A DNA stretch of 64,000 bases from a virus (IMGVR_UViG_3300046047_000272), one strand, 5' to 3'. Positions 5,786-63,336 are shown, numbered from the stretch's first letter. Program-made: numbers and translations. The notes: generated from the sequence alone by a model not told the origin.

Positions 5786-6084
5786 CTAAGCCGCCGTCCT
5801 CGGACGTAGCCACGAGGATCAATAATTACTCGGATACGGGGTCTTCGGCCGATAGACCGGTGGTTCTGTGCGTCTCAACACGATCTCACCGTCATTCCTC
5901 AATGAAGAGGATGCATATTACACGAGAACTGCTGCATGACAATCATATCATAGGGCGTTGGCTCTGTAGAACCGGTGGAGAGCATCACATTCTAGCGTGC
6001 AGGTCCGATCTTATGGAACCGCGGCACTGCAACGATAGAGCGTGTGCACGAGGAAGCATATCCTAGGAATACGCTCTGCAGGAG
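5786..6084 (+). repeat. ~300-bp structured repeat, full copy A (candidate ncRNA or ssDNA element)
   Basis: ctaagccgccgtcctcggacg...gaagcatatcctaggaatacgctctgcaggag; 9 other copies in window; TATAAT at 5775. Confidence 0.9.
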
Positions 6085-6206
6085 TGACCGACGTCTCACA
6101 ACTCATCCATGGTTCAGCACCAGCTCGCATCTCCAACGCCCAAGCAACCTGTCCTTGCTAGACCACAACAGATCGAGCCAATATACTCCATGTCCTAAAC
6201 GTATTT

Positions 6207-6289
6207 CTAAGCCTTCATTCTCGGATTGAGTTGCTAGGATCAATAATTACTCGGATACGGGGTCTGCATCCGTTAGACCGGCGGTTCTG
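6207..6289 (+). repeat. 5'-only copy B of the ~300-bp repeat
   Basis: ctaagcc...ggatcaataattactcggatacggggtctgcatccgttagaccggcggttctg. Confidence 0.85.
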
Positions 6290-6377
6290 ATTAGGATAAC
6301 AACCAATTAAGTCATATGGTCATAATTTCCAATGGTGCGGTATTATAAGTTAATATCTACGACTTATAGGGGGATTC

Positions 6378-7074
6378 ATGACGACTCAACAACACGATGA
6401 TATTGGTATTCTAATTGATGAACGAGGTATCATTATTAAAAATGGGAAGCAGTACATTAGCATTAAATTAGATAATCCCATAAGTGCGTCTATCTTCAAG
6501 AGTATTGGTAGAATTGGACAACCAGGTGGTTATCCTGATGTATATAGTCTCATTAAGGAATTCGCTGCGGCATACACATCGTATCAGGAGATATCTGAAT
6601 TTAAGGATCATTCTGATGAGCAATCTGATCTGACAGAAGATTTTATCAATAATCTTATCGCTGATTTTCATGCAGTAAGCGGTAATGGACAGTCATTACC
6701 GGTATCAGATGACATTATATCTGTTTTTCAGTCCTAAAGGCAAGATTATTAATTTACCAGTGAATGCCACACCTATCGATTATGCTTATACTATTGACCC
6801 TACGAGATGGTTAGGCTTACACGCTATGGGATGCCGTATCAATGGTGTTCTCAGTAGCTTAGACACGGTTCTACATGTAGGCGATACAATAGAAATCATC
6901 GTATCACATTCTGATGAGAATGCAGGCGTTCCGATTGATTGGCTTGATTTTGTGGTCACCGATGTAGCAAAACAAGCCATTATTGATGGTTTGAAAGATT
7001 TAGATAGCAATTCTAAGACAATCATCGATTGGGATAGAGTGATGGACGCGTTAAAGAATAATCATTTATCCTAG
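6378..7074 (+). pseudogene. stand-alone RelA/SpoT C-terminal (TGS) fragment protein, frameshift at T-run ~6724
   Basis: FSPKGKIINLPVNATPIDYAY...GCRING...LHVGDTIEII...DWLDFVVT matches Rel TGS. No synthetase or hydrolase domain. Confidence 0.7.
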
Positions 7075-7138
7075 AATTATCATTGGCGCTCACGTTAGAT
7101 GTATATTACCAAGCCTATAAGCACAGGAGGATGATGGT

Positions 7139-8344
7139 ATGACGCAATCAACATCGATATATGGCAAGAACACTGATGGATCGTATAGCATTTGTAAGGC
7201 TAAGCCAGGCAATGAGGGTAGATATGGCTGCCATCATGTTGAGGGATCTCACGTACAATTAACACCTAATGAATTCCAAGACAAGCAAGAGGAATATTAT
7301 CGTAAGAATCAGTCTGCAATCGGTAGCATGAAAAAGCCCGGTACTAAGCCAGAACGAAACGATGATACTCTCAGCAAGCAGACTGAAACGAAGATCGTCA
7401 AAAAGAACCTTCGTATTGATAAGGGTGACACTGCTCACAAGCCGATAGGAAAAATCGTATCGATAGACGGTGTTCAGGGTGATTATGGCGAGGTCATGGC
7501 TAAACGAGGATCAAAGTACACCACGTTAACTGATGAGCATGGTAATACATATCGATTCGATATTAGTCACACCATTAAATATGAACAACAGGTCACTGAA
7601 CTAACACCTGAAGCGAAACTGGCCAAGCGCAGGAACGATTATCGAGAAGGATTCCTGGATAAAAGCAATCTGGTATCATCAAGCTTTCATAAGATCAATG
7701 CTAAGATAGCTGATGATCTTGACCATAAGAGGCCTTTCAGTCCATTCGACATTAAGAAATACAATGAAGAGAAAACTCTGAACGAGTTTAATCAGCGGGT
7801 CATGTCAGCTAATAAGGATGATCAGTTCGCTGGCACTCGTCAAGTATTAGAAGACATGTCACGTGATTATCAATACGATAACATACATGATCATGATGGT
7901 CGATTGTCAGCTGAGGATCGATATACCATGGCTAATTATGTCGATCAGTACGATAATATCAGAAGAGGACTGCCTACGCCGACGAGTGAGCAGAATGCTG
8001 CTATCAGAGTTGATTTAGGCAATGCGCTCAATAAGGCTCATATGGATTACGCTACGGCAAGGGCTGACATCCAAGAGCATGGCCTTACCGAAGCTCGTCA
8101 AGCCAGATTAGCTAACGCGCAGATGGGAACCGTATACTTCAGGAATATGCTTGATGATAGTGACGGTGGATCTGTAGCAGAGACCTACGCCCATTCGAAC
8201 TGGGCACCAGAAAGCCAGATTGTCGGTAGGCGTCTTGAACGAGCAGATCAGTATTCCACAAGTCCTTCAGGACAATCCAATAATGAGGCTACGATTCGAT
8301 GCGAAGCTGTACTCATATCATCTATCCTTCGCCAGACCAAATAA
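7139..8344 (+). CDS. hypothetical protein with N-terminal Cys/His leader
   Basis: YGKNTDGSYSICKAKPGNEGRYGCHH; AGGAGG RBS. Confidence 0.8.
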   Translation: MTQSTSIYGKNTDGSYSICKAKPGNEGRYGCHHVEGSHVQLTPNEFQDKQEEYYRKNQSAIGSMKKPGTKPERNDDTLSKQTETKIVKKNLRIDKGDTAHKPIGKIVSIDGVQGDYGEVMAKRGSKYTTLTDEHGNTYRFDISHTIKYEQQVTELTPEAKLAKRRNDYREGFLDKSNLVSSSFHKINAKIADDLDHKRPFSPFDIKKYNEEKTLNEFNQRVMSANKDDQFAGTRQVLEDMSRDYQYDNIHDHDGRLSAEDRYTMANYVDQYDNIRRGLPTPTSEQNAAIRVDLGNALNKAHMDYATARADIQEHGLTEARQARLANAQMGTVYFRNMLDDSDGGSVAETYAHSNWAPESQIVGRRLERADQYSTSPSGQSNNEATIRCEAVLISSILRQTK

Positions 8345-8357
8345 CATCTAATCAGAC

Positions 8358-8400
8358 TCATCTGGGGACGCATCTTACCAATAAATGCGTCCCCAGATGA
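8358..8400. terminator. 16-bp stem hairpin
   Basis: tcatctggggacgcat...atgcgtccccagatga directly after stop codon. Confidence 0.6.
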
Positions 8401-8412
8401 TATCTCACACCT

Positions 8413-9971: not shown

Positions 9972-10805
9972 ATGACATGGCATCTACAACAAAAGACCAT
10001 TAAGGACATTAAACCAGGTGACCTCACACTAGACGCTGACGGTAAGGTATCGCGCGTCTTATCAAAAACCGAGGAACATCGCCCAGATGATCTCTATGAA
10101 TTGACGTTCGTCACCAAGAATAAGACCATGACGATACTAGCTGATGGCCAACATGTCTGGCCTATAGATCCTAATCGAGGTGGTATTCCATATGAAGCTA
10201 AAGGTGAATCAGAAGCAACAACAGAGGATCTAGCCGTATGGTCCACTAGAGGGCTTCATCCATCATTGACCATCACGTCAACAGCGACAGGCGGACCATC
10301 ACGTCCATGGATGCTGAAAAGTTGTATCTTAACCGATGACTCTACCCAAGCATCGACACGAGTGGCCTGTCTAAGCGTCAATTCACCATCACACACCTTC
10401 ATGCTTGCATCACAGTCAGCGGTCAAGCAACCATCAACAACAACCACCGTACTCGTGACGGCTAATGATGGATCATCATATGAAATCTCACGTGATGACT
10501 ATGATCGCGCTATGAATGATGCCCTGCCCACGCATAATTGTGGAGGACCGCTGCCATTATCAACGATCATTCCATTAGCCGATGGGACCACCACAACCAT
10601 GGGTACCATTGCGACCGGAGACGTCGTCATCAGCCCAAGTGGACCATCTCCAGTACTATCGACGAGCCCAATCATGCCAGCCAAGAAACTCTACCATATA
10701 GATGTCGTAGACGATGACTCAGAAGAAGATTTGCCACAATGGACGATTGACGATCTTAGACAAGCAGAAGCCAGGTATCAGGCACAACATCAATTTGATT
10801 CGTGA
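9972..10805 (+). CDS. split-intein adaptor: IntC1 (class 3) - extein CGG - IntN2
   Basis: KTIKDIKPGD, ADGQHVW (block B), VACLSV (block F Cys), PTHN (block G) ending 10538; then CGG; then PLPLSTIIPLADGTTTTMGTIATGDVV (block A). Confidence 0.85.
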   Translation: MTWHLQQKTIKDIKPGDLTLDADGKVSRVLSKTEEHRPDDLYELTFVTKNKTMTILADGQHVWPIDPNRGGIPYEAKGESEATTEDLAVWSTRGLHPSLTITSTATGGPSRPWMLKSCILTDDSTQASTRVACLSVNSPSHTFMLASQSAVKQPSTTTTVLVTANDGSSYEISRDDYDRAMNDALPTHNCGGPLPLSTIIPLADGTTTTMGTIATGDVVISPSGPSPVLSTSPIMPAKKLYHIDVVDDDSEEDLPQWTIDDLRQAEARYQAQHQFDS

Positions 10806-13552
10806 CTCGCACGATGCACATCAAATCGCCATCGAATCTTTCCGCAATCATATATCCGCTCTAAACCATTCAACTCGGCTAACGCTTGCTCAGTAAGACC
10901 CTCAACAAAGATCAAATCAGGATCATCTCTGAAGCGTCGTTTCCGATATGTGAACTTATGCTGACGTTGCTTACCAATGATATAGGCGTAATCTGCAGGA
11001 AGAACAGCGTCTTGATAAAAGCCTAATCGACGATACATTGATCCATCACTAACGCTATTGTCGCTAAACGTGATCACATGATCAATATCACCTGCGACTA
11101 TAGCATGATGCAGGAGTCTACTTAACCCTCCACGTAATCGACAACCCAATAACGCTGCATATCTCACCAGTCTCATCTCACCATCATGGACACGATACGC
11201 GATGACGGCCGCAAGATCGTCATGATCCTCTTTCCGAGCAAGAGCCATGAACACACAACCAGTAGGCGCACCCTGAATATGATTCACGCGAAGGAATGAT
11301 CGTGCAGTATCGCGGTCGGGGATCACCACAACATATGATCGCGCATTCAGAGGTCGTAATAGATCAGGTCTCAGCAACGTCGTCAGATGATCCTCAACAA
11401 TAGTACGATGGTCAAGCCAATCATCCTCCCAGATCGTCATCAATCGAATACCATGATCAGCGGCTAATCGCGTCTTATCCTCATGACGAGATACGTCCTC
11501 AGGACGATGACAAGCATGCCAATGCAGCCCATTGTACTCAAAGCCAAGATGAAGATCCGGGACAAGCACATCAATCTCAGATCCACCAAGAACCGACCGA
11601 TCATTCCTCAGCACGAGATGATCGTCACCGAGCATCGATTGAATCGTATCCCCAAGATCACATTCACTCGAAGACGTATGACGACCAGACACGCACTTAG
11701 GACAATGGCCATCGTGCTCAAATGCTCGTCCCGTGACAGAACACGTCCAATGACGACCATGCTGGCATGTCCAAACTATCTGAGTCCTATCATTGATCAT
11801 CACCTGATCCGGTCTACGATCACCATTCGCCTGATCGTCCCACTCATCAGCAAGATCAGGTCGTTCCGTCGCAAGATCATTCACACCGCTCATGAGGGTC
11901 TTATGCTTGCAAAGATCGCATCCAGAGGCGTATCCTCCCCTCGCCTCGACGCTAGGAGGGCTCATCCAAGTCCAATCATGACCATGATCACATGTCCAAT
12001 AGACCGGCGTCTTCGACCAAACGCCAATCGCCGTGGGATCAACAGTGTTCTTATCAGACCATCTAACCATAAGATCAGGTCGTTCAGTCGCAAGGTCATT
12101 CCACCCGGGTAGGACTTGACGTCTCCGACAATACGGACAGGAGGCAAGACCAGTCCGTATCATAGCCTTCAGACTCCGATGATAATGACCGCCACATACA
12201 GGACATGACCAGACATATTGCCGACGATCACTAGGACAGGCAAGCACATCATCGGCCGAGCAGCCGTTCTCATCAGACCAGGCCGAAGCAAGGTTGGGTC
12301 TGGTCTTAGCCAGGCTATTCGAGTGATCATCAAGCCAAAGACGGCCATCCTCAAAAGGACACCGTCCATGCCACTTCTTCATCGTAGCCATTGAAGCTAA
12401 CCAATGATGATCGTGCCGGCATGACCAGTGACCAATATCAGGATTCTTCACTGATCCCCACAGCTCATCATCACAGATGGATGGCCAATCAGGATGCATA
12501 CCCGAACTATCATTCACGCCTGGAATGACCAGACGGCCATCACAGAAAGGACACTGACTCTTCCTAAGATGACACATGGCTCTAGCAGAAGCCGAGAAGA
12601 TCTCTCCACATGTATTGCATGACCAAAGCCAATACCGATCATCAGATGATCGTATCATCGTTGGATCTCCAGGATTGCCAGGCCACCAGGCCAGCATCGC
12701 ATCATGATGATCAGCAATCGTATCAATTCGACGATGAGCGCAGACCTGACAACAAGCATCGACACCACGATCCATAATCCGCCCAATGGTCGCATGCACA
12801 GGATGCCCCTCAGAGCACAACCAATCATAGGACGCTGATCGACGACAGGCCATTCGCTCTATGGGTTGATCTAATCGGGATCTATCAAGACGATCCATCA
12901 CCTCAGGATAGTCAGTCATATGGCCATATCGTACAAGATCTTGACATATCGGACATGCATCATGGTCATGCGTCAATGCTCTAGGCGACGATGTGAAGAC
13001 ATCACCATAGGGACATGTCCAGGTACATGACGTCAACGATGATCGTGAGATTGTCGTAGGGTCACGATTATCATGCCATAGACGCAGTAAATGATCATCG
13101 CTAGCCACATCGTTCACGCCCGGAATAATCACTAATCCTAGACAAACCGAACAACCGCCATTCCGCGTATTAGCTCTATTCTGAATAGATGATCTCCATA
13201 CATGATGACGATGATGCGGATCACGCCACCAGGCCCTCTTATTTGATGAAGCTAATAACGCATAAGGATCTAATCCCTCACGCTGATTCTCATCCCATGA
13301 CCACCAGGCCATAACGTCAGGTCGAGTAGACGCCAGGTCGTTATAGCCCTTAAGGACACGACCATGATCATATGGACAATACTGGTCATCATCATGCATC
13401 TTATCACATGACAATTGATAATGATGACCATCAGGACACGTCCACCACCATTTCTTATTACTCTTAGCGGCGACAGCAGAAGCAGGGCAATGATTCCTAT
13501 CCTCGTCCCATAGACGAGCAGCTGACGGCATATCATCTAATACGGTTCCCAT
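10790..13552 (-). CDS. free-standing homing-type endonuclease: multiple treble-clef Zn-ribbon repeats + Vsr/PD-(D/E)XK-like nuclease + Hef-like C-terminus
   Basis: Repeats of W.C..GH.W...CP.C...V.PG.NDLA..RPDL; EIDVLVPDLHLGFEYNGLHWH; IWEDDW; NHIQG...GGLSRLL...RIYDCGKIRW. Confidence 0.8.
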   Translation of the reverse strand: MGTVLDDMPSAARLWDEDRNHCPASAVAAKSNKKWWWTCPDGHHYQLSCDKMHDDDQYCPYDHGRVLKGYNDLASTRPDVMAWWSWDENQREGLDPYALLASSNKRAWWRDPHHRHHVWRSSIQNRANTRNGGCSVCLGLVIIPGVNDVASDDHLLRLWHDNRDPTTISRSSLTSCTWTCPYGDVFTSSPRALTHDHDACPICQDLVRYGHMTDYPEVMDRLDRSRLDQPIERMACRRSASYDWLCSEGHPVHATIGRIMDRGVDACCQVCAHRRIDTIADHHDAMLAWWPGNPGDPTMIRSSDDRYWLWSCNTCGEIFSASARAMCHLRKSQCPFCDGRLVIPGVNDSSGMHPDWPSICDDELWGSVKNPDIGHWSCRHDHHWLASMATMKKWHGRCPFEDGRLWLDDHSNSLAKTRPNLASAWSDENGCSADDVLACPSDRRQYVWSCPVCGGHYHRSLKAMIRTGLASCPYCRRRQVLPGWNDLATERPDLMVRWSDKNTVDPTAIGVWSKTPVYWTCDHGHDWTWMSPPSVEARGGYASGCDLCKHKTLMSGVNDLATERPDLADEWDDQANGDRRPDQVMINDRTQIVWTCQHGRHWTCSVTGRAFEHDGHCPKCVSGRHTSSSECDLGDTIQSMLGDDHLVLRNDRSVLGGSEIDVLVPDLHLGFEYNGLHWHACHRPEDVSRHEDKTRLAADHGIRLMTIWEDDWLDHRTIVEDHLTTLLRPDLLRPLNARSYVVVIPDRDTARSFLRVNHIQGAPTGCVFMALARKEDHDDLAAVIAYRVHDGEMRLVRYAALLGCRLRGGLSRLLHHAIVAGDIDHVITFSDNSVSDGSMYRRLGFYQDAVLPADYAYIIGKQRQHKFTYRKRRFRDDPDLIFVEGLTEQALAELNGLERIYDCGKIRWRFDVHRASHESN

Positions 13553-13663
13553 ACATACTATTATATCACGGAAAACACGACTATTCCACTATGGAATCAC
13601 CGTCAAATCATCATAAATTAGCTAGGGTCATCAGGTCTTATAGACGCAGAGCCATGATGCATC

Positions 13664-14641
13664 ATGATATCTACATATCTACATAATATGACCGAGACAA
13701 CAACCGTCACCTGTGACGAACGACACCTATGGACCGTATTAGACGTTCAGGATAAGACCATCATTGTCATATCCACGGAGGATATGATCAGAAATGGCGT
13801 CGATCGATATCGATTACCATCTCAACATGGACGATGGAGAAGAATCGTCACCGCCAAAGAGGACCAACCAGAGCCAGTACGATGCATCGAAGTGCAAGCA
13901 GATGAACACGTCTACCTCCTGAGTAATGGCGTCTACACCCACAATACTGGTGGCGGTAAGAGCGTGGCTCAACGAAACGTGATTTTCCATTGCATTGCTC
14001 ATGCCGCGGAAATCAAGTTTCTTGGTGTTGACTTGAAACGTGTAGAGTTATCGGCCTATAAGCCATATTCTAATGCCGTCATCGGTATAGCCACGACTCT
14101 TGAGGACGCTATCGAGGTCCTCAGATTTGCTCAGGAGACCATGATGAATCGTTATGGAGAGATGGAGGCCGCTCATCATAACAACTTCCTCGACATGGAG
14201 AACGCCGGATCGGCTCTGATGGTCATGGTTGACGAGGCCGGTGAGCTGCTAGACATGTCCTCACCAGCTAAGGCTCTTGTTGGATCAACGCCTGTGCCCA
14301 ATCTTGAGAACAGACCTGATTTAGCGCACTTACAACTTGGAGACCATATCATCGGTGATGACGGTGAATGGCATCGCGTCATTGACAAATACCAGCCAAC
14401 AACAGATAAGGCCTATAAGGTGACCATCAAGCGTGACCACGATGGTCAGAAAGAAGATTTTACCTGTGGCGCCCAACACGCGTGGACCGTCTATCCTCAT
14501 GGCGCCAATGACGAACCATTAGTTGTCAATACTGACCAGCTCATGAGTATCTGGGAATCAACACCGCCAAGCGAACGCAAGAACATCAAATTCACTAGAT
14601 CACGTACGGGCAATGCTCTGAAAGAAGCGTCTATTGATTAA
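13664..14641 (+). CDS. IntC2 - FtsK-like ATPase core extein - IntN3 (split intein fragment)
   Basis: TCDERHLW, VRCIEV, YTHN (ends 13945); extein TGGGKS...VDLKRVEL...MVDEAGELL...PAK (13946-14272); then ALVGSTPVP...LQLGDHIIG...TCGAQHAW. Confidence 0.88.
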   Translation: MISTYLHNMTETTTVTCDERHLWTVLDVQDKTIIVISTEDMIRNGVDRYRLPSQHGRWRRIVTAKEDQPEPVRCIEVQADEHVYLLSNGVYTHNTGGGKSVAQRNVIFHCIAHAAEIKFLGVDLKRVELSAYKPYSNAVIGIATTLEDAIEVLRFAQETMMNRYGEMEAAHHNNFLDMENAGSALMVMVDEAGELLDMSSPAKALVGSTPVPNLENRPDLAHLQLGDHIIGDDGEWHRVIDKYQPTTDKAYKVTIKRDHDGQKEDFTCGAQHAWTVYPHGANDEPLVVNTDQLMSIWESTPPSERKNIKFTRSRTGNALKEASID

Positions 14642-15124: not shown

Positions 15125-16378
15125 TCAGTCATGAATAAGACCCATATCTGACAGTACATGTTCACGATCACGAAGGTCCGACACATCATCCTCAAGCAAT
15201 TCAGAAGGATAATCTGTAGTAATCGCCGATCCCTTCTTGACCACATGAATGAGATCGGTAAGACTCTCGAACCAATTAGCGTAGGCTACGATATAATCAT
15301 CCCGCCATTCATGAACATCCATCAGCATAGCATCAACAACACCACCAGCGACGACGAAGGCCGCTCGCTCAGCGGTGATCGTCGTGAGATCATCAGACGT
15401 CCTTGGTGTACCACCAGATGTGAGTGCATCATGGATAAACGCTGGTATCTGACGAATGATCTCACGGCGAACAAGATTTGCTTCATGATTCGTGCAAGAT
15501 CGATTAATAGCCGTCTTCACTATCTCTGGCTCGTATCTCCACATGATCACATCAGCCAGAGCATGACGCGTATCCAAGACCTCTAAGGTCATCATAACAT
15601 CGTCTAACTGGTTGATATGGAGACGATCCTGCCTACGCTGTTCATCAATAGCCACACAACGAGTCAGAACAGACATGGATGAATCATGCAGGATATCGGG
15701 AAGCGTGTATCCATCGACATACGGCTTATTTAGCACACTGACCTCTGATGGCTTCATGACCTGGTCGCGCAACATCACACCAAGAAGAGACGACTGCATC
15801 AATGATGGATCAATGGTCATATGATTACCATGCTCATTCACCAGATCAACATCAACCACATAGACATCAATGCTGCCAGTGCTCATGTCCTCAGATGGCC
15901 GATACACACCTAACTCAGTAGTGGAAAGATGATACCGACAATGCTGATCACGTTCCTGTTGAATCAATACATCATAGATCGTATCCTCTGCGGTCCTGAG
16001 GATACGATCACGTCCATACTCACGTCTGAACTCGACATCCCGCACGATGAGCATACCAGCCATCCTCTTTGAACCTGGCTGATAGATCATAGGAATCATA
16101 TATCGTCCAGTATACAAATCGTGCACAAGAACAGCGATCTTATCACCACGATCAATAATAGTGTCTACACGATGCACGGTAAGACCATTCCAATAACTAT
16201 CCGTCGTCCTACGCACCACGGTATCCTCATCAGCCACGTCTGGTACATCGACAACCCTGTCATGAACCGTTACCTGGGAACGAAGATAATTACGATACGC
16301 CACTATAGACTCCTCCTGTAAACACCTATTTGCTGCATGAATAGTATTTATCGTATCACATGATGCGTCATAACGCAT
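15125..16378 (-). CDS. hypothetical protein (start may be internal)
   Basis: 417-aa ORF. Confidence 0.65.
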   Translation of the reverse strand: MRYDASCDTINTIHAANRCLQEESIVAYRNYLRSQVTVHDRVVDVPDVADEDTVVRRTTDSYWNGLTVHRVDTIIDRGDKIAVLVHDLYTGRYMIPMIYQPGSKRMAGMLIVRDVEFRREYGRDRILRTAEDTIYDVLIQQERDQHCRYHLSTTELGVYRPSEDMSTGSIDVYVVDVDLVNEHGNHMTIDPSLMQSSLLGVMLRDQVMKPSEVSVLNKPYVDGYTLPDILHDSSMSVLTRCVAIDEQRRQDRLHINQLDDVMMTLEVLDTRHALADVIMWRYEPEIVKTAINRSCTNHEANLVRREIIRQIPAFIHDALTSGGTPRTSDDLTTITAERAAFVVAGGVVDAMLMDVHEWRDDYIVAYANWFESLTDLIHVVKKGSAITTDYPSELLEDDVSDLRDREHVLSDMGLIHD

Positions 16379-16403: not shown

Positions 16404-16537
16404 CTAGATCTCGCGTCTAATCCTGATTCTCGACTCATCTAGTATAATGTATCATCTGAGGGCTTTACCGACCAGCACCAATCTGAATAGGCTCAGAACA
16501 TGAGTCTTTACTCATGTTCTGAGCCTAACTAGATCTC
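16404..16537 (+). ncRNA. promoter + short transcript + 18-bp hairpin element, copy 1 (candidate sRNA)
   Basis: TATAAT 16443; hairpin taggctcagaacatgagt-cttt-actcatgttctgagccta 16488-16527; homologous inverted copy at 51492-51622. Confidence 0.5.
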
Positions 16538-23642: not shown

Positions 23643-24218
23643 TTATGCTGTGATGATGGCTGTTCCCTTGGTGAAGCGCATGTTCACATTGTCTATGGTG
23701 GCTTGTGACAGATTAGCTTTGTTGATGATGGCATCGCTGAGGTCTACATTGGTAAAGATCGTGTCTTTGAGGCTTGCTGAGGATAGGTTTGCATAGCAGA
23801 AGAGGGCTTTATGGAGATTGGCCTTGTCGAAGATGGTGTGCCGGCATGTTGTGTTGATAAGATTAGCATGGTGTAGATTCGCGTTGGTGAAGATGGCGTG
23901 GTTGAGGACGGCTCCTACTAGTCGAGCGTTGGTGAGGTTGGCTCCTGTGAAGATGGTTGAGGACAGGTTGCATCCTCTGAGGTCTGCTCCTGTTAGATCG
24001 GCGTTGGTGAAGTTGATGCCGGATAGGTCTCCTTGGTGGAAGTCTGCTCCTTGCATGTTGTCTGGGTTGACGCCGTAGGCTATGATTCGCTGTCGATTGG
24101 TGGTGGCTTTGCGATTGATGGCTTTGGTGAGTATTCTTGTGGTGATTGGGGTGATGATGATCTTTTCTATGGGATTGGTGATGGATTGTATGGTGCGTTT
24201 GATGAGGCGTGTGTTCAT
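23643..24218 (-). CDS. pentapeptide repeat protein
   Basis: Tandem A(D/N)L/F-x-x repeats (ADLTG, ANLTN, ANLHH, ANLSS). Confidence 0.9.
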   Translation of the reverse strand: MNTRLIKRTIQSITNPIEKIIITPITTRILTKAINRKATTNRQRIIAYGVNPDNMQGADFHQGDLSGINFTNADLTGADLRGCNLSSTIFTGANLTNARLVGAVLNHAIFTNANLHHANLINTTCRHTIFDKANLHKALFCYANLSSASLKDTIFTNVDLSDAIINKANLSQATIDNVNMRFTKGTAIITA

Positions 24219-25364: not shown

Positions 25365-26192
25365 ATGAATCTGGCTGAGAGGTTGGCTAGTGTAGAGGGT
25401 ACGATTAGCCTGTATGAGCGTGAGGGTGATGGTCACTTGCCGACGTGGAGTGAGTATGTTCCTGTGATGCACGATGATGGTGATCGTGGGAACGGTTGTA
25501 CGATGGTGAGGGTGATGAGTGAGGATGTGGTTACTCGGATTGTGGCTTGTGCTGGGGATGCTAGGACTGGTGTGGTGAATTTTGCGAGTCCTGTGCGTCC
25601 TGGTGGTGGGTGGCGGTCTGGTTGCTCTGCTCAGGAGGAGAGTCTGTGTAGGGCGTCCTTCCTGTCATGGGAGTTGGAGTGGTTTGATGATGAGTATTAT
25701 GGTGTGAATCGTGAGCATGTCCTGGCGGGGATGTCCTTGCCGCATTTTGTGTATAGTCATGATGTGAAGTTCGTGAAGTGTCCGGTGGATGGTCGTGAGG
25801 TCGTGGTTAATCCCGTGTATGTTGATGTGGCTTCGATGGCTGCGCCTAATAGGCGGTTGAATGATGGATCGTATGTTGATGCTGATTATGAGCGTGATGT
25901 GACGTATAAGTTGAAGCAGGTTCTTAGAGCGTTCAAGCGGTATGGGCGTGAGACGATTATTCTTGGCGCGTTTGGTTGTGGTGTGTTTGGTAACGATCCT
26001 AGGATGGTTGCTCGGGTGTCGATGAGCCTGTTGCTGTCTGATGAATTCGCTGGTGTATTCAGGACGGTCTTCTTCAGCGTGTATGGTCGCGGTGAGCATT
26101 ATATGGCGTTTGTTGATGTTCTTCGTGTGGTGGGTGATGCCCGGGTGTCTGGTGACGGGTTGATGACATGCCTTGGTGCTGGCAGGGTGTAG
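25365..26192 (+). CDS. TIGR02452/DUF2263 bacterial PARG-like macrodomain protein
   Basis: VNFASPVRPGGGW..G..AQEESLCR; ILGAFGCGVFGNDP. Confidence 0.85.
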   Translation: MNLAERLASVEGTISLYEREGDGHLPTWSEYVPVMHDDGDRGNGCTMVRVMSEDVVTRIVACAGDARTGVVNFASPVRPGGGWRSGCSAQEESLCRASFLSWELEWFDDEYYGVNREHVLAGMSLPHFVYSHDVKFVKCPVDGREVVVNPVYVDVASMAAPNRRLNDGSYVDADYERDVTYKLKQVLRAFKRYGRETIILGAFGCGVFGNDPRMVARVSMSLLLSDEFAGVFRTVFFSVYGRGEHYMAFVDVLRVVGDARVSGDGLMTCLGAGRV

Positions 26193-36301: not shown

Positions 36302-36418
36302 AAGAATCGATGTGTAGGAGTATCATGGTACCGCAAAAATGGATCCAATGGCAATGACCATGACGACGTGGCGTTAGTAGCTTATGATTAATGATGGTCT
36401 CATGAGCGAGTGTCCATA

Positions 36419-36530: not shown

Positions 36531-36689
36531 AATCATATCTAATGGTACCTTCATAGTATGACCTATATGTGGTCATCATGATGACCAAGGAGAGCCATCA
36601 TGGAATCAAGGCATCAGCGACGATTAGTGTCGTTAATGGGCGCGTTGACGGGGCAGTACGTGATGGCCTTAGGCGGGTATCATGATGCG

Positions 36690-36988: not shown

Positions 36989-37017
36989 GTATCGTTAACT
37001 GATACTCAGATCATTGA

Positions 37018-37302
37018 TTATTTAAATTTGAGCAATCGTGTTGCGACCATGATCATGGCGGAGATGCTCATGGCTGTCAGTATCAGCATCAGATACATCG
37101 TTCCTGCAACATGTAGAATTTGTAGTGCTCTGATGCTGAATCCAAACATCATGACGCTGACGCCAATTAGCCCAATGGCCGTCAAGGAGACATTATATGG
37201 GAAGACGTCATCTTCGAGAGCCTTAGACCGGCGTATGCCGTCAATCGTGACGATCGCCACCGTCAGGGTCATAACGATGATGCATTCAAACAGTATATTC
37301 AC
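37018..37302 (-). CDS. small membrane protein between repeat copies
   Basis: Three hydrophobic segments; GGAGG RBS. Confidence 0.6.
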   Translation of the reverse strand: MNILFECIIVMTLTVAIVTIDGIRRSKALEDDVFPYNVSLTAIGLIGVSVMMFGFSIRALQILHVAGTMYLMLILTAMSISAMIMVATRLLKFK

Positions 37303-37479
37303 GATTCCTCCAGTGTCCTGTGACTAATGAATAAATGATAGAATCAATAGTATACCGTAGGTGGGACATGGACCGGGTTATCGAGTGAGCGTGTTGTTTG
37401 GGTGGCATTCGGCTGGCCTTGGCGGTGGAACGAGGAATAGCTTAGGGCTGTGACGGCATTCAGCGGGGCGTGTGATGCG

Positions 37480-37788
37480 CTCCTGCAGAGCGTATTCCTA
37501 GGATATGCTTCCTCATGGACACGGTTTATCGTTGCGATTCCGCGGTTCTTGAACATCACCTCTGTACACTAAAACATGATGTATTCCACTAGTTCTACGG
37601 AGCCATTGAGTCTGCCGATCATTGCAGCTTCGTGGTTCTCACGTGATCTGAGGATGTAATGCCTAGGAATGACCATGAGATCATGGTGAGACGTACAGAA
37701 CCGCCGGTCTATCGGACGTAGACCTAGTACTAGTATAATTACTGATCCTCGTGGCCGCGTCCGAGGAAGGCGGCATAGCATCACGTCT
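37480..37788 (-). repeat. full copy F of ~300-bp repeat
   Basis: Same conserved blocks. Confidence 0.9.
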
Positions 37789-37971
37789 AGTGGTTGGTCC
37801 ATATTATGGCTAGCTGGGTGTCATGCATCATGCTCGGAGCAGGACTAGCGATCGGCCAGTGCTAGCTCATCATTGAGGTCCATTGCAGTGGTGGGTGTCC
37901 GCATGGTCCAGTGGGTGCGGCTGGGTGTTGATCACTGAGGATAGGACAAGCCAGCGCTGCGTGGTTGGGTG

Positions 37972-38281
37972 CTCCTGCAGAGCGTATTCCTAGGATATGC
38001 TTCCTCATGGACACGATCTATCGTTGCAGTGCCGCGGTTCCTAAAAATCACTCTTGCACACTAGAATATGATGCTCTCTTACTGGTTCTACGGAGCCGGT
38101 GATCCTGTTGATCATTGCAGCTTCGCGGTTCTCACGTGATCTGAGGATGTGTTGCTGAGGAGTGATGGTAAGACCGTGTTGAGAGTCTCAGAACCGCCGG
38201 TCCATCGGACTCGAACCCTGTATCCGAGTAATTACTGACCATCTTGGTCGCGTCCGAGGAATCCGGCTTAGCATCACGTCT
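37972..38281 (-). repeat. full copy G of ~300-bp repeat
   Basis: Same conserved blocks. Confidence 0.9.
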
Positions 38282-38294
38282 ACAGCCATGATGT

Positions 38295-38774
38295 CTACAG
38301 TAAAGCTTCACGTACCCAGGTCATCATAGATGATGCGTCATCGTTGGCATGGAAGGACTCGTCTTGATGATCAGGTTGTTCGTCAGCCGCGTCACTAAGA
38401 TCATAGACGGTCACACTGCCGTCATGCTCCACGTCAAACTCAATATCAATACTGTCAAATTCCACTATGAGGCTACCATCATCTCTTGGTGCTAGGAGGA
38501 TGATTGGCTCCTCGGATAGGTGATGGGGATAGGTTGTAAAGAGGTTCAGAATAGCCTCGATGATGGATTGCGTTTGCCTTATAGTCGCCCTAGACGCTTG
38601 CAGGCCGCGCTCATCTATCCAGCCGTCCTCGAGATTCGCTATTACTCTGAGTTGTTGACGCAATGCCAGTGTCTGTGGATTCATCTTCCATGGACACGGT
38701 GAAACTGGCTCTAAGAGTAATGATCCACTAGCTACGTCAGCATACCGGTTCCTGTGTTCATGCTGCATGGTCAT
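38295..38774 (-). CDS. hypothetical protein
   Basis: 159-aa ORF (LEDGW...P..DGSL..EF). Confidence 0.65.
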   Translation of the reverse strand: MTMQHEHRNRYADVASGSLLLEPVSPCPWKMNPQTLALRQQLRVIANLEDGWIDERGLQASRATIRQTQSIIEAILNLFTTYPHHLSEEPIILLAPRDDGSLIVEFDSIDIEFDVEHDGSVTVYDLSDAADEQPDHQDESFHANDDASSMMTWVREALL

Positions 38775-39378
38775 ACCGTCCCTTCATCGATGTCTTCCTT
38801 ATGGTTGATCGTATCCGACTCTACGAGGAGATCGTCCCTGAGCCGCATGAGCGTGAATCCTAGGAGGTTCATGCCCCTCCATTGGAGGGGATCCATCCAT
38901 CGAGTATCGATGTCCCCTTGACGTGTGCGTTTGCCAAGTGGACACCCCATACTCGATCAAATGGTGACGCCTCTACAAGAACAGCGTCATGCGTATCCTG
39001 GAGATATGATCGGAGGACTGGGTCCTGCGTGTACTTGGCGTGGACGGCCAGGTACATCTTCTCCTCTCTGACGCTCCCCCAAGCGTCATCGTCGTAATGC
39101 ATGACCGCTCGACCTAATCGTTTGTAGTCAGATGGTTGCAATCCTGGCTCTAGGATGGCGTTCGCGGTCTGATGGTCATTGAAGAACATGGCCTTCTGAT
39201 ACATGAAGTACTGTTCAGATCAGGTAAAATGATGCTGATCGACCGTGAATGATGTCTGATGGACGTTGCTGAATGTCTGCTCTACTGGTGAGTCATTGTC
39301 ATCTCCCCAGAAACCGATGTACGTATGATGATGACCAGCGGCTAATGAGGCGGTCAACCACGATGTATCGTATCGCAT
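38771..39378 (-). pseudogene. NADAR (YbiA-like) family, with in-frame TGA and a frameshift
   Basis: FWG...FSN...FT*SEQYFMYQKAMFF...LGR.V...LVEASPFDRVWG; shifted frame gives WRGMNLLGFTLMRLRD. Confidence 0.85.
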
Positions 39379-39420: not shown

Positions 39421-39792
39421 TCAGGCGTAGGCGTCGATGTCTGCTGGCATGGTTATCGTGTGATCCTCTGGTCGGGGATCGGTGAAGCAGAATCGTACGC
39501 CACCGGTTGCATCAAGGAGCTTCGTAATATCCTCCTGACTGACGTAATCAGCGATATGATTGACCGTCACGGCGGTCTCCAGGGTGTCGCCATCCTCGCC
39601 ATTATCCCGCCATGCATACCGATGCCAACCGGATGGTAACCGGTCTGCTCGTATTCGAGCTGGACCCTCATAGGCGAGGATGTCCTGGAGATCGTGTCCA
39701 TGATCGTCCTGAATGACGATGCGGACAGGTTGCATGGTGATCGTGTTGCTCATGCTGCGTCCTTCGATACTTGACCGATACGATTGATGCAT
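39421..39792 (-). CDS. LPD28-like domain protein
   Basis: RADRLPSGWHRYAWRD...LETAVTVNH. Confidence 0.55.
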   Translation of the reverse strand: MHQSYRSSIEGRSMSNTITMQPVRIVIQDDHGHDLQDILAYEGPARIRADRLPSGWHRYAWRDNGEDGDTLETAVTVNHIADYVSQEDITKLLDATGGVRFCFTDPRPEDHTITMPADIDAYA

Positions 39793-48837: not shown

Positions 48838-50298
48838 CTACAAGCCGGCCGCCGTGTGACGTGCCAGCCATGCACCGCACGAAGCGCGGTGACGGTTCTC
48901 CAGCACGTCATAGAGTGTTTTACGATGGGGCGCGCCCCGGCCCCTGGGTAGAGCATCGGAGGAACGTCCTCCGATGACGCGAGCGGCATTCACATCAGCG
49001 TTAAGCGCGCGTCCGCAACACGAGCACTTGAAGTGCGACTGATCCCTTCGATTCCTCTTATCAACATAACCGCACTTCGAGCACTGCTGGGACGTGTAGG
49101 CCGCATTCACCTTGGTGATGATGATTCCACGCTCCTCGCGCAGCGCCTGAAGCTTCTGGTTCAGGAACCCGCGACCCGACCTTGACAGGATACGGTTCAT
49201 CCTCTTGCTAAGACCGCCACCACGGAAGTCAAGATCCTCAACAATGATCTCCCTCGCGTCGGCTGCCAGAATGTTCAGCATGCGCCCAATCTCGTTCTCC
49301 ATGAGACTACGAGACCGGGACACTAACGAATCATAGCAGGAATCTCCCCTGAGCCTTAAACCCTTACTACTGAGCTCCTTGACACGATTCATGAGCATAG
49401 TGTCTAATCGTTTCAACTCAGCAAGGGCTGGCCTCCCGAGCATCCTCCCGTCAGGGAGCGTGAACAGGCTCACGAGACCCCAGTCGAATGCGATCACGTC
49501 ACCATCCTCGCGGAGCGGAGCGCATGGCTTCTCTATTACGGGTGACACGCTGAGCGTGTCACCCTTTAACGAGAGTTGGATATGATTCAGAAGTCTTCCA
49601 CCCCGTCGTCTCCTAGCGAAGAACCTGTTATCCTTTACTGGTATGAGTACGGGGTGACCCCTGTCAAGCGTGCTCGTCCGAAGCCACCATGAGAAGCCAG
49701 TCCCCCTGGATTCCTCGAGGACAGCGCTCTTCGCGTCTAGTTTCATCGTGATCTCATGCCCGAGGACTGGTCGGTGATTCACTCTGCGAGCGTGCTTCAC
49801 AATGCGACGCATGAGCCAGAGATGCTCACTACTCACGTGGATGAGCGTTGTCCTACCGGCTCTTCGTTCAGCTGTGGTAGGGTGGATAAGCGTGCCGTCA
49901 CTAGTGACCATCCAGTCGAGCTCGTAGGTCTTCGCGTGCCATGCCATATGATAATTCAGCCTGTAGAGGGTGTCCCTCGTGTACGGGTCGAGGGTGCTGA
50001 GCGTAATGATCCGCCGCACGGTACCCTGTAGGGAGCGGAGCCAGGAGGCGTAGGATTCCCTGGCCTGCGCGTAACAGGACTGGGTCTGCCGAGCGGAGAG
50101 GTGGATTATGGCCTTCGAGTTAGTGTACTTGCTGGGTGGCTTGGCGTCCTGGATGAGACGCTGATCCATGCTGGCTACTAGGATGGTGAGGCCGTGCTGG
50201 TACTCGTGGATTAGGTCTCGTATCCTGTTGATCTTACCCGCGTTAGCGGGTGATTTGAGCCTGTAGGAGCGAGTGTAGACTGATGGCTTACTGGTCAT
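48838..50298 (-). CDS. tnpB: TnpB RNA-guided endonuclease (IS200/IS605/IS607 group), no adjacent TnpA
   Basis: RuvC motifs IAFDWG, IVEDL, NADVNAA; Zn finger YTSQQCSKC...CSCC; higher GC than flanks. Confidence 0.9.
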   Translation of the reverse strand: MTSKPSVYTRSYRLKSPANAGKINRIRDLIHEYQHGLTILVASMDQRLIQDAKPPSKYTNSKAIIHLSARQTQSCYAQARESYASWLRSLQGTVRRIITLSTLDPYTRDTLYRLNYHMAWHAKTYELDWMVTSDGTLIHPTTAERRAGRTTLIHVSSEHLWLMRRIVKHARRVNHRPVLGHEITMKLDAKSAVLEESRGTGFSWWLRTSTLDRGHPVLIPVKDNRFFARRRRGGRLLNHIQLSLKGDTLSVSPVIEKPCAPLREDGDVIAFDWGLVSLFTLPDGRMLGRPALAELKRLDTMLMNRVKELSSKGLRLRGDSCYDSLVSRSRSLMENEIGRMLNILAADAREIIVEDLDFRGGGLSKRMNRILSRSGRGFLNQKLQALREERGIIITKVNAAYTSQQCSKCGYVDKRNRRDQSHFKCSCCGRALNADVNAARVIGGRSSDALPRGRGAPHRKTLYDVLENRHRASCGAWLARHTAAGL

Positions 50299-51134: not shown

Positions 51135-51491
51135 TTGAACCTCCTATGATCAGTTAATGTTGCTATAGACGATGAATCGTATCCACTACCTGTGATAGTA
51201 TGATGATACTATCATAATACGATGTTCCACACAATTGTCTACATGGTCATCGTGAGCTATTCTAGATACGATCATAGGCACTGTCATTGCGGTGCCTATG
51301 ATCGTAGAAGGAGCATCGAATCATTAGTTCATGGTTCCAGATAGATAATCCTCGACTGGGTCTAATACCTCCTCATGATACTTTTGGTAATCATTAAATC
51401 CAAGATAGATGGTCAATCGTTCAGGAGTAGTTCCAACATTGACAACCTATCATATGAAACGCACGTTCTAGTCTGCTCTTAGAAGGACGAA

Positions 51492-51622
51492 ATCTAGTTA
51501 GGCTCAGAACATGAGTAAAGATTCATGTTCTGAGCCTATTCTGACTGGTACTGGGTATAAAAGCTCTCAGATGATACGTTATACTAGACGAGCTTAGAAT
51601 CGGGATTAGATGCGAGATCTAG
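51492..51622 (-). ncRNA. promoter + short transcript + hairpin element, copy 2
   Basis: Inverted homolog of 16404-16537; hairpin 51499-51538. Confidence 0.5.
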
Positions 51623-57826: not shown

Positions 57827-57832
57827 TCGTGA

Positions 57833-61024: not shown

Positions 61025-61366
61025 CTAATGCCGCCAGTGCAGAGCATCCATGAGATCAATGTCTTCTCCTGGGGTAGCACCATCGACGAGTATCCAATCA
61101 TAATGATAATGATCATCAATGGTGAGGTAGAGCACGTCGCCATTCGTGAAGACGAAGGTCAATCCTTCCGGGATGATCGTTGGCTCGCGCTCATTGACCA
61201 TCTTATCCTCGGCCTCATTCAAGAGCCTATCCAGCGTCGTGGTGTAATGCATCCAACCGACCCTGACGACATCTTGCTCTTGATGGCCATTCTTAGTGAT
61301 GACTACTCGTAGGTACTCGTCTAATGGAATGACTCGACCATAGATCTTATCAGCAGTTTTCATCAC
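61025..61366 (-). CDS. hypothetical protein, tandem paralog 1
   Basis: PLDEYLR...VGW.HYTTTLDRL...IPEGLTFVFTNGDVL. Confidence 0.75.
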   Translation of the reverse strand: MMKTADKIYGRVIPLDEYLRVVITKNGHQEQDVVRVGWMHYTTTLDRLLNEAEDKMVNEREPTIIPEGLTFVFTNGDVLYLTIDDHYHYDWILVDGATPGEDIDLMDALHWRH

Positions 61367-61479
61367 AGGCCTCTCTCAATTGCACTACACGTTTTTTGTT
61401 GATATAAGCATCATATCATACACATGAATGAGACACGCCGAATCACCATGATCATCATTGATCAGGGTAATGGTTATCC

Positions 61480-61833
61480 TCATGACGCCCAGTTCAGAAC
61501 GTCCATGAGATCAATGTCCTTTCCTGTGCCCGCCCCCTTGACGACCATCCATTCAGGATGCTCGTTATCATACTGATCAGTAGTATGCGTTAGGAACAAT
61601 ACGTCCCCATTTGTGAAGACGAAGGTCAATCCTTCTGGTATGAGCATTGGTTCGTGCTCATTGACCATCTTATCCTTAGCCTCCTTCATGAGCCTATCCA
61701 GAGTCGTGGTGTAATGATTCCAACCGACTCTAATGACATCCTTCTCCTGGTAGTCATTATCGGAGATAATGGACCGCAGATACTCGTCCAATGGTAGCAC
61801 ATGACCGCCTATTTCGTATCCATACTTATCCAT
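61480..61833 (-). CDS. hypothetical protein, tandem paralog 2
   Basis: Same motifs; GAGGAG RBS. Confidence 0.75.
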   Translation of the reverse strand: MDKYGYEIGGHVLPLDEYLRSIISDNDYQEKDVIRVGWNHYTTTLDRLMKEAKDKMVNEHEPMLIPEGLTFVFTNGDVLFLTHTTDQYDNEHPEWMVVKGAGTGKDIDLMDVLNWAS

Positions 61834-62247
61834 GATCATTCTCCTCTTCCTCATAATGGGTTTTATAATGATCATCCTATCATATAGATACATGAGACAC
61901 GCCGGATCACCATGATCATCATTGATCAGGGTAATGGTGAAAGAATGTGTGGAAGGCCGGAGGTGCTGTCCCGGGCACCGCCCTTCTTTACGCAACGATT
62001 ATCAGACATCAGGTATTTCAACCTAGGATTCATCCGCTGCATCCCTCGCTAAGGCCTTGCAATGCCGAGTAGCTTCATGCTGTGTGCATTCACGCGATGA
62101 ATTTCGATGCCCTATCCGTCGCAACCAACAAGAATGACTATACGTGGCCGCGGTCATCATGTCAACACGGCGTGTCGTCATACGCAGATCATGATAGATC
62201 AGACAATAGCCCCATATGATGTGGTGGATGGCCCTCAGCCACCTCTC

Positions 62248-62337
62248 AGACGCACAGAACCGCCGGTCTATCGGATGTAGAGCTAGTACTAGTATAATTA
62301 CTGATCCTCGTGGCTGCGTCCGAGGACGGCGGCATAG
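62248..62337 (-). repeat. 5'-only copy H of ~300-bp repeat
   Basis: cagaaccgccggtctatcggatg...gcgtccgaggacggcggcatag. Confidence 0.9.
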
Positions 62338-62554
62338 AATCATTATTAGAGGAATGGTTACATCTTTCATCATCTCATCAATCGCTTGTCATGAGATCAG
62401 GGACGGTCTATTATTGTGTGGAGGATATGACGATAGTCCTATGAGTGAGGATTAATGACGATGGGTCTAGTGATGATGACTAGCGTATGTCCATGTCCAG
62501 GGGTGATGTGAGCAGGAGCTTGCTGTGTGGTTGCTCCTGCTGGATGGATGGACG

Positions 62555-62864
62555 CTCCTGCAAAGCGTATTCCTAGGATATGCTTCCTCTTGGACACGGT
62601 TTATCGTTGCAGTGCCGCGGTTCCTGAAAATCACTTCTGCACGCTAAAACATGATGTTCTCCACTAGTTCTACGGGGCCAATGGACTCGCTGATCATTGC
62701 CATTCCATGCCTCTCACGTAATCTGTGTTCTCGTCACTGAGGATGACCATATGATCGTGTTGAGAGGCACAGAACCGCCGGTCTATAGGATGCAGAGCCA
62801 GTACTAGTATAAAATTACTGATCCTCGTAGCAGCGTCCTAGGACGGCGGCTTAGCATCACGTCT
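62555..62864 (-). repeat. full copy I of ~300-bp repeat
   Basis: Same conserved blocks. Confidence 0.9.
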
Positions 62865-62937
62865 ATGGGTAGGTTCATATAATGATCCGCTTGGATTGAT
62901 TCATCATACTAGGAATAGGAGCGGGATTGCCTATCAT

Positions 62938-62994
62938 TATCATTGAGGTGCTGCTTAGGGTATCATTGAGGTGCTGCTTAGGGTATCATTGAGG
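62938..62994. repeat. 23-bp direct tandem repeat (2.5 units) within inter-repeat spacer
   Basis: tatcattgaggtgctgcttaggg x2 + tatcattgagg. Confidence 0.9.
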
Positions 62995-63027
62995 GTCAGT
63001 GACGGAGTGGGCCCTCGTGGCTGGGCG

Positions 63028-63336
63028 CTCCTGCAGAGCGTATTCCTAGGATATGCTTCCTCGTGCACACGCTCTATCGTTGCGATGCCGCGGTTCCTGA
63101 AAATCGCTTCTGCACTCTAGAACATGATGTTATCCACTAGTTCTAAGGAGCCATTGACCCTGATAATTGTTGCAGCTTCGTGGTTCTAGCATGATCTGCA
63201 TCCTCGTCGCTGAGGAATGACGGTGAGATCGTGTTGAGACGCTCAGAACCGCCGGTCTAACAGCCGCAGACCCCGTATCCGTGTAATTATTGATCCTAGC
63301 AACTCGATCCGAGGACGGCGGCTTAGCGTCACGTCT
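63028..63336 (-). repeat. full copy J of ~300-bp repeat
   Basis: Same conserved blocks. Confidence 0.9.

Follow-up and report, generated by a model that had tools for sequence, protein, structure and literature searches.

A composite non-coding repeat with a possible role at transcription-unit boundaries in a megaphage-like genome

The 64,000-nucleotide (nt) viral sequence IMGVR_UViG_3300046047_000272, referred to here as the window, carries a repeat of ~300 nt that is present in six full copies (A to F) and in four shorter copies comprising its 5' domain alone. The element was previously unrecognised, and we tentatively propose, with a confidence that stays somewhat short of even, that it represents a composite non-coding intergenic cassette which acts in cis as a boundary between transcription units. 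According to this proposal, the 5' domain would close the preceding unit as a terminator, a processing hairpin or an insulating hairpin, and the last ~95 nt of the repeat (the 3' module) would provide a phage-specific signal for the start of the unit that follows, acting as a promoter or, alternatively, as a 5' leader whose hairpin is bound by a protein, the latter option being suggested by the strand bias of the predicted module hairpin. The most informative evidence is the genomic context of these parts, and the most interesting part of the element is the conserved 95-nt module at the head of the units, which is shared between phages that have about one open reading frame (ORF) in seven in common.

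Context and parts of the repeat in two phages

On the same strand, a 5' domain follows after each of the six modules of the window, in five cases at a distance of 120–216 nt; after module C the next 5' domain lies 490 nt further on, with an ORF of 94 amino acids (aa) in between. The flanking ORFs run in the same orientation as every repeat copy in the window, and four of the ten 5' domains (A, D, B, and B3) start 14–50 nt past the stop of an ORF. The only relative found in any collection is the IMG/VR record G001 (419,707 bp, with direct terminal repeats, 50 tRNAs, and a tmRNA). It was identified by a scan for the invariant core of the module, AAGCATATCCTAGGA, and nhmmer then detected 12 further modules in it (E 8e-27 to 3e-16). 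Downstream of seven of these 12, the same strand carries an unrelated repeat of ~100 nt, designated el2; the interval between module and el2 is either non-coding (145–440 nt) or occupied by one or two ORFs. The 12 modules are distributed over 10 loci, of which five are divergent intergenic regions with the module 100–200 nt from the diverging ORF, and the remaining loci come after an upstream ORF. When both phages are considered together, the next ORF has the same orientation as the module in 15 of 18 cases, and the remaining three are module-to-el2 units of G001 that contain no gene; where an ORF follows closely, its start is found 78–216 nt past the module core. Thus, the contexts in the window and in G001 suggest that both phages build units from a conserved head module, a payload or spacer, and a lineage-specific closing hairpin.

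The repeat family itself was recovered by a repeat search of the window (direct families D1–D5, D8, and D10; inverted pairs I1–I14), and its six full copies show a mean column identity of 81–84% in two MAFFT alignments. Profile searches with nhmmer yielded ten window matches of the 5' domain (the first ~90–105 nt; E 1e-32 to 5e-20), six of the middle part, and exactly six of the 3' part (the last ~95 nt; E 7e-23 to 6e-21). The matches of the 5' domain profile are located at 5775–5880(+), 6195–6299(+), 35539–35646(−), 36435–36543(−), and 36895–36998(−), as well as at 37684–37791, 38177–38284, 62246–62349, 62758–62866, and 63232–63339 (all −). An earlier sequence-only reading of this DNA had described a family of six full and four 5'-only copies, and the repeat search and nhmmer place all ten within a few bases of where it had put them. 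It had also noted a TATAAT a few nt ahead of copy A, which is correct for this copy only; a conserved AGACGTGATG precedes the others instead. In run X1, the summed contig depth over the copies at 35536–38349 reaches ~4–20 times that of the flanks (e.g., 522 and 467 vs. ~26); such a summed depth over repeats, here in the likely source run, is no copy number, yet suggests that further copies of the family exist beyond the window, either in the same genome or in relatives within the sample. Many contig joints between copies occur in the likely source run as well, and these are indistinguishable from other genomic copies or assembly effects.

The repeat does not code for protein. Each of the six frames of every copy contains at least one stop, the variable columns are spread over the codon phases as 45/54/51, which means that there is no codon periodicity, and indels of 1 nt among the copies occur at two alignment columns. 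A coding reading was ruled out accordingly; by eye, two module variants contain a reverse-strand ORF of 15 codons, which is not retained across the copies. With the covariance models of Rfam 15, no match at gathering scores was obtained in the whole window or in 140 kb of G001, and a search of 35400–38400 at E up to 5 returned only a chance match to mir-81 (20.3 bits vs. a cut-off of 54.5 bits). There was no blastn match among 50,697 phage records, nor did copy A (word 11) match any of 72,556 PLSDB plasmids at E 1e-5. Exact and degenerate pattern scans of viral, metagenome, and genome contigs led to G001 alone, besides one AT-rich chance match (L021). A tRNA-like nature of the 5' domain was considered and dismissed, as ARAGORN calls no tRNA or tmRNA in the window. 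The repeat search reported no terminal inverted repeats (TIRs) for the whole element, and no target duplications were seen in the flanks that were read. The sequence-only reading had characterised the element as unrecognised, multicopy, and non-coding, and as lacking the terminal repeats and target duplications of a miniature inverted-repeat transposable element (MITE), and in these points it was borne out; the element is no known Rfam family either.

In contrast, its suggestion that the ~300 nt constitute a single structured RNA was not sustained. As RNA, the whole copies are no more stably folded than their dinucleotide shuffles, with z-scores of −0.63 for the given strand and −0.78 for the opposite one, and as DNA the six copies reach z-scores of +0.4 to −2.7 on both strands, with a mean of about −0.8 and without any long hairpin. 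RNAalifold on the six full copies proposes 69 pairs, five of them with a compensatory change, and a covariation term of +1.65, which is a penalty. Neither RNAalifold nor the comparison of pair counts with shuffles revealed a covariation signal clearly above the controls; these tests are of low power, since the module is known from two genomes only and the copies within a genome are paralogues. Furthermore, the four solo 5' domains of the window and the presence of the module without the other parts in G001 indicate that the 300-nt element consists of at least two separable parts.

The module comprises the last ~95 nt of the repeat. Across all 18 modules 29 columns are invariant, the unbroken AAGCATATCCTAGGA among them, and there is not a single indel over ~45 columns, though the sequence between the invariant blocks varies; ~20 nt past the core the conservation drops sharply. 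In G001 the regions upstream of the modules are mutually unrelated, and according to nhmmer neither the middle part nor the 5' domain has a counterpart there. The invariant core includes an 8-bp perfect palindrome, TCCTAGGA, and a U/T-rich tract is located at the 5' edge of the module. In three of the six window modules and eight of the 12 G001 modules, the structure of minimum free energy (MFE) is a closing helix around an invariant apex of ~30 nt with the apical sequence CACGRGGAAGCAUAUCCUAGGA, whereby the arms of the helix differ between the phages (AGAGCGUGU/AUACGCUCU vs. GGCCGUGUAA/UUAUAGGGUC). Where it forms, this hairpin has −17.5 to −23.2 kcal/mol on the given strand vs. −8.3 to −15.5 kcal/mol on the opposite strand. 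For the 18 modules taken together, RNAalifold retains an invariant 4-bp stem, RGGA/UCCU, alone, with zero compensatory pairs. We regard these predictions as a hint, not as a proof, of an RNA-level hairpin in the module. The module also carries GCGTGT-N18-TAGGAA, which may bear a resemblance to a promoter; readings as an ECF-type (extracytoplasmic function) or sigma-54-type promoter were tried by eye, and the spacings do not fit.

The 5' domain is an imperfect inverted repeat of ~20 nt, AGCCGCCG-TCC-TCGGACGC ... GCGTCCGA-TAGA-CCGGCGGTT, with an AT-rich core. It can fold as a long hairpin or as a three-way junction (−21 to −38 kcal/mol, z down to −3.6). For the three-way fold, 89% of the cells in the ten-copy alignment are paired, with two double-change pairs (a number reached by 47 of 500 shuffles) and a covariation score of 0.130 (reached by 18 of 500 shuffles); for the long hairpin, 84% of the cells are paired and there is no excess over shuffles. 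Both folds owe most to sequence conservation, and they are partly disrupted in copies A2, B, B3, and D. In most copies the MFE structure is one long hairpin, not the three-way junction of the sequence-only reading, and the covariation is not clearly above shuffles; the stems named in that reading are present in the consensus and are broken in several copies. Its argument that G–U pairs favour the given strand applies to the 3' hairpin only; for the 5' domain, folding on the opposite strand is equally good or better, with a mean z of −1.8 compared to −1.2 on the given strand. The best-folding copy, B3, reaches −3.6 on the given and −3.8 on the opposite strand, and in B2, E, and E2 an inspection of the alignment by eye shows C·A mismatches of the given strand that become G·U pairs on the opposite one.

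The individual copies are found in three regions of the window. Full copy A (5786–6086, +) is composed of the 5' domain (5786–5872), the middle part, and the module (5990–6088); a C-rich, G-poor spacer follows (6087–6206, +; C 36%, G 14%) and then the solo 5' domain A2 (6207–6289, +), ~90 nt upstream of the ORF at 6378–6737. All other copies lie on the minus strand. Copy D (37970–38281, module 37968–38066) starts 14 nt past the stop of the ORF at 38295–38774, and a C-rich spacer (37789–37969; C 37%, G 20%) separates it from copy C (37478–37788, module 37476–37574), after which a further C-rich spacer (37303–37477) leads into the 94-aa ORF (37018–37302). Copy B (36688–36988, module 36686–36784) starts 20–30 nt past the stop of this ORF. 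Between the spacer after module B (36531–36687; C 29%, G 18%) and the ORF at 35696–36301 lies the solo 5' domain B2 (36435–36543), and the solo 5' domain B3 (35539–35646) is found ~50 nt past the stop of the same ORF. In the third region, copy F (63026–63336, module 63024–63122) heads a leftward block and is divergent from the nucleoside deoxyribosyltransferase-like ORF at 63479–63952(+). It is followed by a C-rich spacer (62865–63025) with an internal 23-nt tandem repeat and three occurrences of CCTCAATGAT, by copy E (62553–62864, module 62550–62649), by another C-rich spacer (62338–62552; C 30%, G 15%), and by the solo 5' domain E2 (62246–62349), which was obtained as a profile match. Immediately downstream of E and E2, the adjacent ORFs 61025–61366(−) and 61480–61995(−) and their upstream regions are tandem duplicates (D6, D11, and D12; 75–89% identity over 65–218 nt).

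All six post-module spacers of the window are C-rich and G-poor (C 29–37%, G 14–20%), with a skew of −0.30 to −0.46 that falls in each case within the lowest 2.5–8% of random 100-nt windows, and none of them has a match elsewhere in the window or in G001. The tandem repeat in the spacer between F and E (62939–62994, −) consists of ~2.5 repetitions of the 23-nt unit CCTCAATGATACCCTAAGCAGCA, and the D–C spacer contains CCTCAATGAT too; in the window as a whole, this sequence has five matches vs. 0.44 expected. The spacers of G001 contain GGTCTGC-like and CAAGGC-like short repeats. The el2 repeat is specific to G001, where about 17 copies of ~100 nt were found (loci L022–L042; e.g., 35011–35190(+), 381292–381415(+), 376761–376881(−), 16076–16196(+), and 63515–63613(+)), and has no copy in the window. 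As judged by eye, its sequences GATGCGTTCTAAC and GTTAGAATGCGTC can pair as a 13-bp closing helix with G·U pairs on the module strand; the helix surrounds a run of A7, and the opposite strand reads as a hairpin plus T7. It has no Rfam match and is not called as a tRNA by ARAGORN. Because of its TTCTAAC...GTTAGAA ends, el2 was also considered as an integron attC site, which was ruled out as no integrase was found in G001.

Candidate functions of the element

If the element does bound transcription units, transcripts would begin within the module or a short way ahead of it, and the hairpin of the module, with its invariant apex, would be the binding site of a phage factor. The C-rich tract might then serve as a Rho entry site, in which case an arrangement like that of the nut/put sites of lambdoid phages would be conceivable, and the 5' domain would stop or process the transcripts. 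The tandem arrays could have arisen by recombination between copies, as in the promoter early stem-loop (PeSL) cassettes of T4. A number of observations weigh against this reading. The middle ~110 nt are conserved among the copies, which a boundary cassette does not explain. No sigma-70-type −35/−10 pair was found on either strand in copies B, C, and D or in the solo domains B2 and B3, no promoter could be recognised in the module, and promoters are usually shorter than its ~95 nt. In the absence of a U-tract, the 5' domain is not a canonical intrinsic terminator, and the covariation for either of its folds fails to rise clearly above shuffles. The closing helix of the module is not formed in seven of the 18 modules, and the stem that RNAalifold finds over all 18 has only 4 bp. 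A C-rich tract is not general in G001 either, where the tracts downstream of the modules are G-rich in five of 12 cases. Finally, both the tandem arrays that contain non-coding spacers alone (F-E-E2 and D-C) and the three gene-less module-to-el2 units of G001 would fit better with small RNA genes.

It is this last point, together with the unexplained middle part and the G-rich tracts of G001, that keeps alive a reading in which the copies are multicopy genes for trans-acting non-coding RNAs, a possibility to which we would give perhaps one chance where three speak otherwise in our judgement. The RNA would be the ~300-nt repeat itself or, more likely, the module together with a variable body of 120–450 nt and a closing hairpin (5' domain or el2), and it could act as a sponge for Rho or another RNA-binding protein, as an antisense RNA, or as a guide. 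The lack of any ORF between the tandem copies, the lack of a co-oriented gene in the three G001 units, the G–U pairs by which the module hairpin favours the given strand, the biased composition and internal short repeats of the spacers (CCTCAATGAT three times in one of them), and the depth that suggests extra copies beyond the window would all be in line with it. Against it stand the shuffle-like folding of the whole copies, the lack of significant covariation, and the many modules directly upstream of ORFs; moreover, no antisense target is visible, since the spacers have no match elsewhere in the window or anywhere in G001. We consider it unlikely that the copies are DNA-level sites at which a phage protein binds or recombines (origins, packaging sites, or sites of site-specific or hairpin recombination), in which case the protein would recognise the palindrome TCCTAGGA in the core and the inverted repeat within the 5' domain. 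Such sites would account for the perfect 8-bp palindrome in the invariant core, for the fixed spacing of conserved blocks, for the clustering of copies in few regions, and for a 5' domain whose folding is no worse on the opposite strand, as is expected for a DNA inverted repeat; they would not require strict co-orientation with genes or produce a strand-asymmetric module hairpin, 10–18 dispersed origins or pac sites would be unusual, and no tyrosine recombinase (PF00589) was found in G001 or, by Pfam, among the 90 window ORFs scanned.

Two further readings appear less probable still. A non-autonomous mobile element, i.e., a MITE or a TnpA-mobilised palindrome-associated transposable element (PATE) of the IS200/IS605 type whose 3' end provides the scaffold of a TnpB guide RNA, is very unlikely in our view. 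The repeat is multicopy, carries a hairpin close to either end, and stops abruptly on its 3' side, beyond which the sequence varies, and the window encodes a TnpB-like protein (486 aa, 48838–50298, −; Cas12f1-like_TNB domain, E 3e-16). The flanks of the TnpB ORF, however, have nothing in common with the repeat family, the repeat search reported no TIRs for the whole element, its flanks differ and show no target duplications where they were read, and there was no Rfam match (window at gathering scores; 35400–38400 at E up to 5). The occurrence of separate pieces (5' domains on their own in the window, modules on their own in G001) and the regular tandem order of module, spacer, and 5' domain do not correspond to an insertion pattern. 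A single-stranded DNA promoter or priming site of the Frpo/ssi type, as in the leading regions of conjugative plasmids, had been offered by the sequence-only reading as one explanation, and we regard it as the most improbable of all those considered here, hardly to be expected. It would agree with the size of ~300 nt, with the orientation along the genes, and with the PARG- and NADAR-domain ORFs of the window. Nevertheless, the replicon resembles a tailed megaphage, sharing ORFs with an IMG/VR record that is bounded by direct terminal repeats and carries 50 tRNAs, no relaxase or oriT was seen in the window, where a T2SSE-family ATPase is present, and the reading is largely refuted by the plasmid search, by the missing −35/−10 pair in the copies scanned, and by the lack of a long whole-element hairpin.

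We consider it possible, though on balance doubtful, that two distantly related megaphages share a short unit not described so far, consisting of a ~95-nt head with an invariant protein-binding hairpin, a biased non-coding body, and a lineage-specific closing hairpin, which would yield phage small RNAs or a nut/put-like antitermination switch and thereby reprogramme host transcription or termination early in infection. To our knowledge, very little is known about how megaphages of at least 400 kb organise and time their transcription, and ORFans abound in the variable regions of these genomes. If the cassette does bound units, it would offer a handle on early gene regulation in this rare lineage, and it could also account for the shuffling of ORFan cassettes; if the gene-less units are indeed RNAs, they would constitute a new phage RNA family. 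The invariant 15-nt core is also a convenient probe for further relatives.

The replicon and its other features

The contig of the window occurs in bioreactor-sludge metagenomes (four DNA runs). Its ORFs, which are mechanical calls and not gene predictions, and of which 90 were covered by the Pfam scan, are densely packed, and the majority belong to no family. Matches include an HNH/DUF4379 endonuclease, an FtsK-like ATPase with a Hint segment, a weak terminase large subunit, a T2SSE ATPase, PARG, NADAR, pentapeptide repeats, and the TnpB-like ORF. A protein-based search for other relatives of the phage returned G001 alone. Homologues in G001 were found for 14 of 100 window ORFs, mostly in the stretch from 8.4 to 22.6 kb of the window, and this identifies the window as part of a distantly related megaphage-like genome. 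Among the ORFs near the copies, one of 12 tested has a homologue in G001, and copies B–F sit in the unshared, ORFan-rich part of the window. G001 encodes one sigma-70-family protein and does not encode an RNA polymerase itself; in the contig of the window, no such sigma factor was located.

In the shared part, the weak terminase-large-subunit-like ORF (9972–10805, +) is followed by the ORF for the HNH/DUF4379 endonuclease of 920 aa (10790–13552, −) and by the FtsK/SpoIIIE-like ORF with a sub-threshold Hint (intein-type) segment (13664–14641, +), and this order of terminase-like, HNH, and FtsK-like ORFs (9972–14641) is syntenic with 100–112 kb of G001. The ORFan-rich part contains ORFs with pentapeptide-repeat, microbial PARG, NADAR, and LPD28 domains (23643–24218(−), 25365–26192(+), 38869–39204(−), and 39421–39792(−)), which could be counter-defence genes. 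A pair of 134-nt inverted repeats, I3 (16404–16537 and 51489–51622), is 87% complementary over a separation of 35 kb and is unrelated to the element. The window also contains a separate promoter-like class, GGCGTGTC-N16-TATAAT, with 11 matches to a loose pattern vs. 2.9 in shuffles, including those at 30171(−), 30268(+), 40903(−), 41424(−), 42781(−), 43272(−), 46452(−), 56955(−), 61437(−), and 61901(−). This class takes in the repeat family D7, which continues into a Shine-Dalgarno sequence and a start codon, and judging from its pattern it may be the ordinary promoter type of the phage, with an unusual −35-like box. When TGA is read as a sense codon, the summed open frames of at least 150 aa rise from 14,672 to 36,303 aa on both strands, far above the values for TAG or TAA; this inflation is likely due to very common strings of the TGATGA/ATCATC type, and table 11 was retained because the standard code yields tightly packed ORFs with Pfam matches.

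Comparison with known systems

Several described systems resemble the element in one part or another. Integron attC sites and the Vibrio cholerae repeats are imperfect inverted repeats of ~60–140 nt that bound small cassettes and have a high identity within an array, and the 5' domain is comparable to them in these respects. The core sites RYYYAAC/GTTRRRY are absent from the 5' domain as far as can be judged by eye, and an integron integrase (PF00589) gave no match in G001 or among the scanned window ORFs; a hairpin recombination site is possible for the 5' domain alone. The nut sites of lambdoid phages and the put sites of HK022 are conserved RNA hairpins with an invariant apex which are located near the starts of early units and are followed by Rho-dependent terminators. 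The window element shares with them a predicted hairpin of invariant apex near putative unit starts and a subsequent untranslated tract that is C-rich and G-poor. It differs in that no similarity to boxA/boxB was established, no N-like protein was identified, and the module exceeds them greatly in length; moreover, nut/put sites are not known to form tandem or gene-less copies. With respect to mobile elements, the repeat corresponds neither to MITEs, with their TIRs and target duplications, nor to IS200/IS605 PATEs, with subterminal hairpins and a fixed target motif, and with its separately occurring pieces it does not behave as one coherent mobile unit.

Masai and Arai are said to have described, in 1997, Frpo/ssi as single-stranded DNA promoters of conjugative plasmids. 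According to Samuel et al. (2024, PMC11541004), the defining feature of Frpo is a single-strand hairpin by which the −35/−10/UP elements are rebuilt. As far as these descriptions go, the likeness comprises the length of ~300 nt, the non-coding nature, the specific orientation, and the multicopy occurrence upstream of small accessory genes. In terms of the same descriptions, the window element has no sequence similarity to Frpo/ssi and no hairpin that rebuilds −35/−10/UP, and its replicon is phage-like and no conjugative leading region.

The closest described system is that of the PeSLs, which Arbiol et al. (2010, PMC2839356) and Comeau et al. (2014, PMC4122927) describe as cassettes of ~100 bp, made of a promoter and a stem-loop, that lie beside ORFans in the variable regions of T4-type phages and mediate shuffling. 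The features given there are a recognisable sigma-70 promoter, an AT-rich upstream region, and a Shine-Dalgarno sequence with a start codon at the end. Of these characteristics, a stable stem-loop (the 5' domain) and the intergenic, ORFan-rich location were found in the window element, and a sigma-70-like promoter and a 3'-terminal Shine-Dalgarno sequence plus start codon were not. Moreover, the window element is ~300 nt long, has no −35/−10 pair in the copies scanned, forms gene-less tandem arrays, is followed in five of six copies not by a start codon but by a C-rich non-coding stretch of 120–216 nt, and shows no sequence similarity to PeSLs. Thus, lacking the promoter pair and the start codon and being three times longer, it is not a member of this class. 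What the two have in common is that each is a composite cassette, repeated between genes, in which a stem-loop accompanies a signal for the start of a unit (putative in the window element); both are located in variable, ORFan-rich regions of large phage genomes in co-orientation with the genes, and both provide stretches of homology long enough for recombination between copies, so that the element would at most work like a PeSL.

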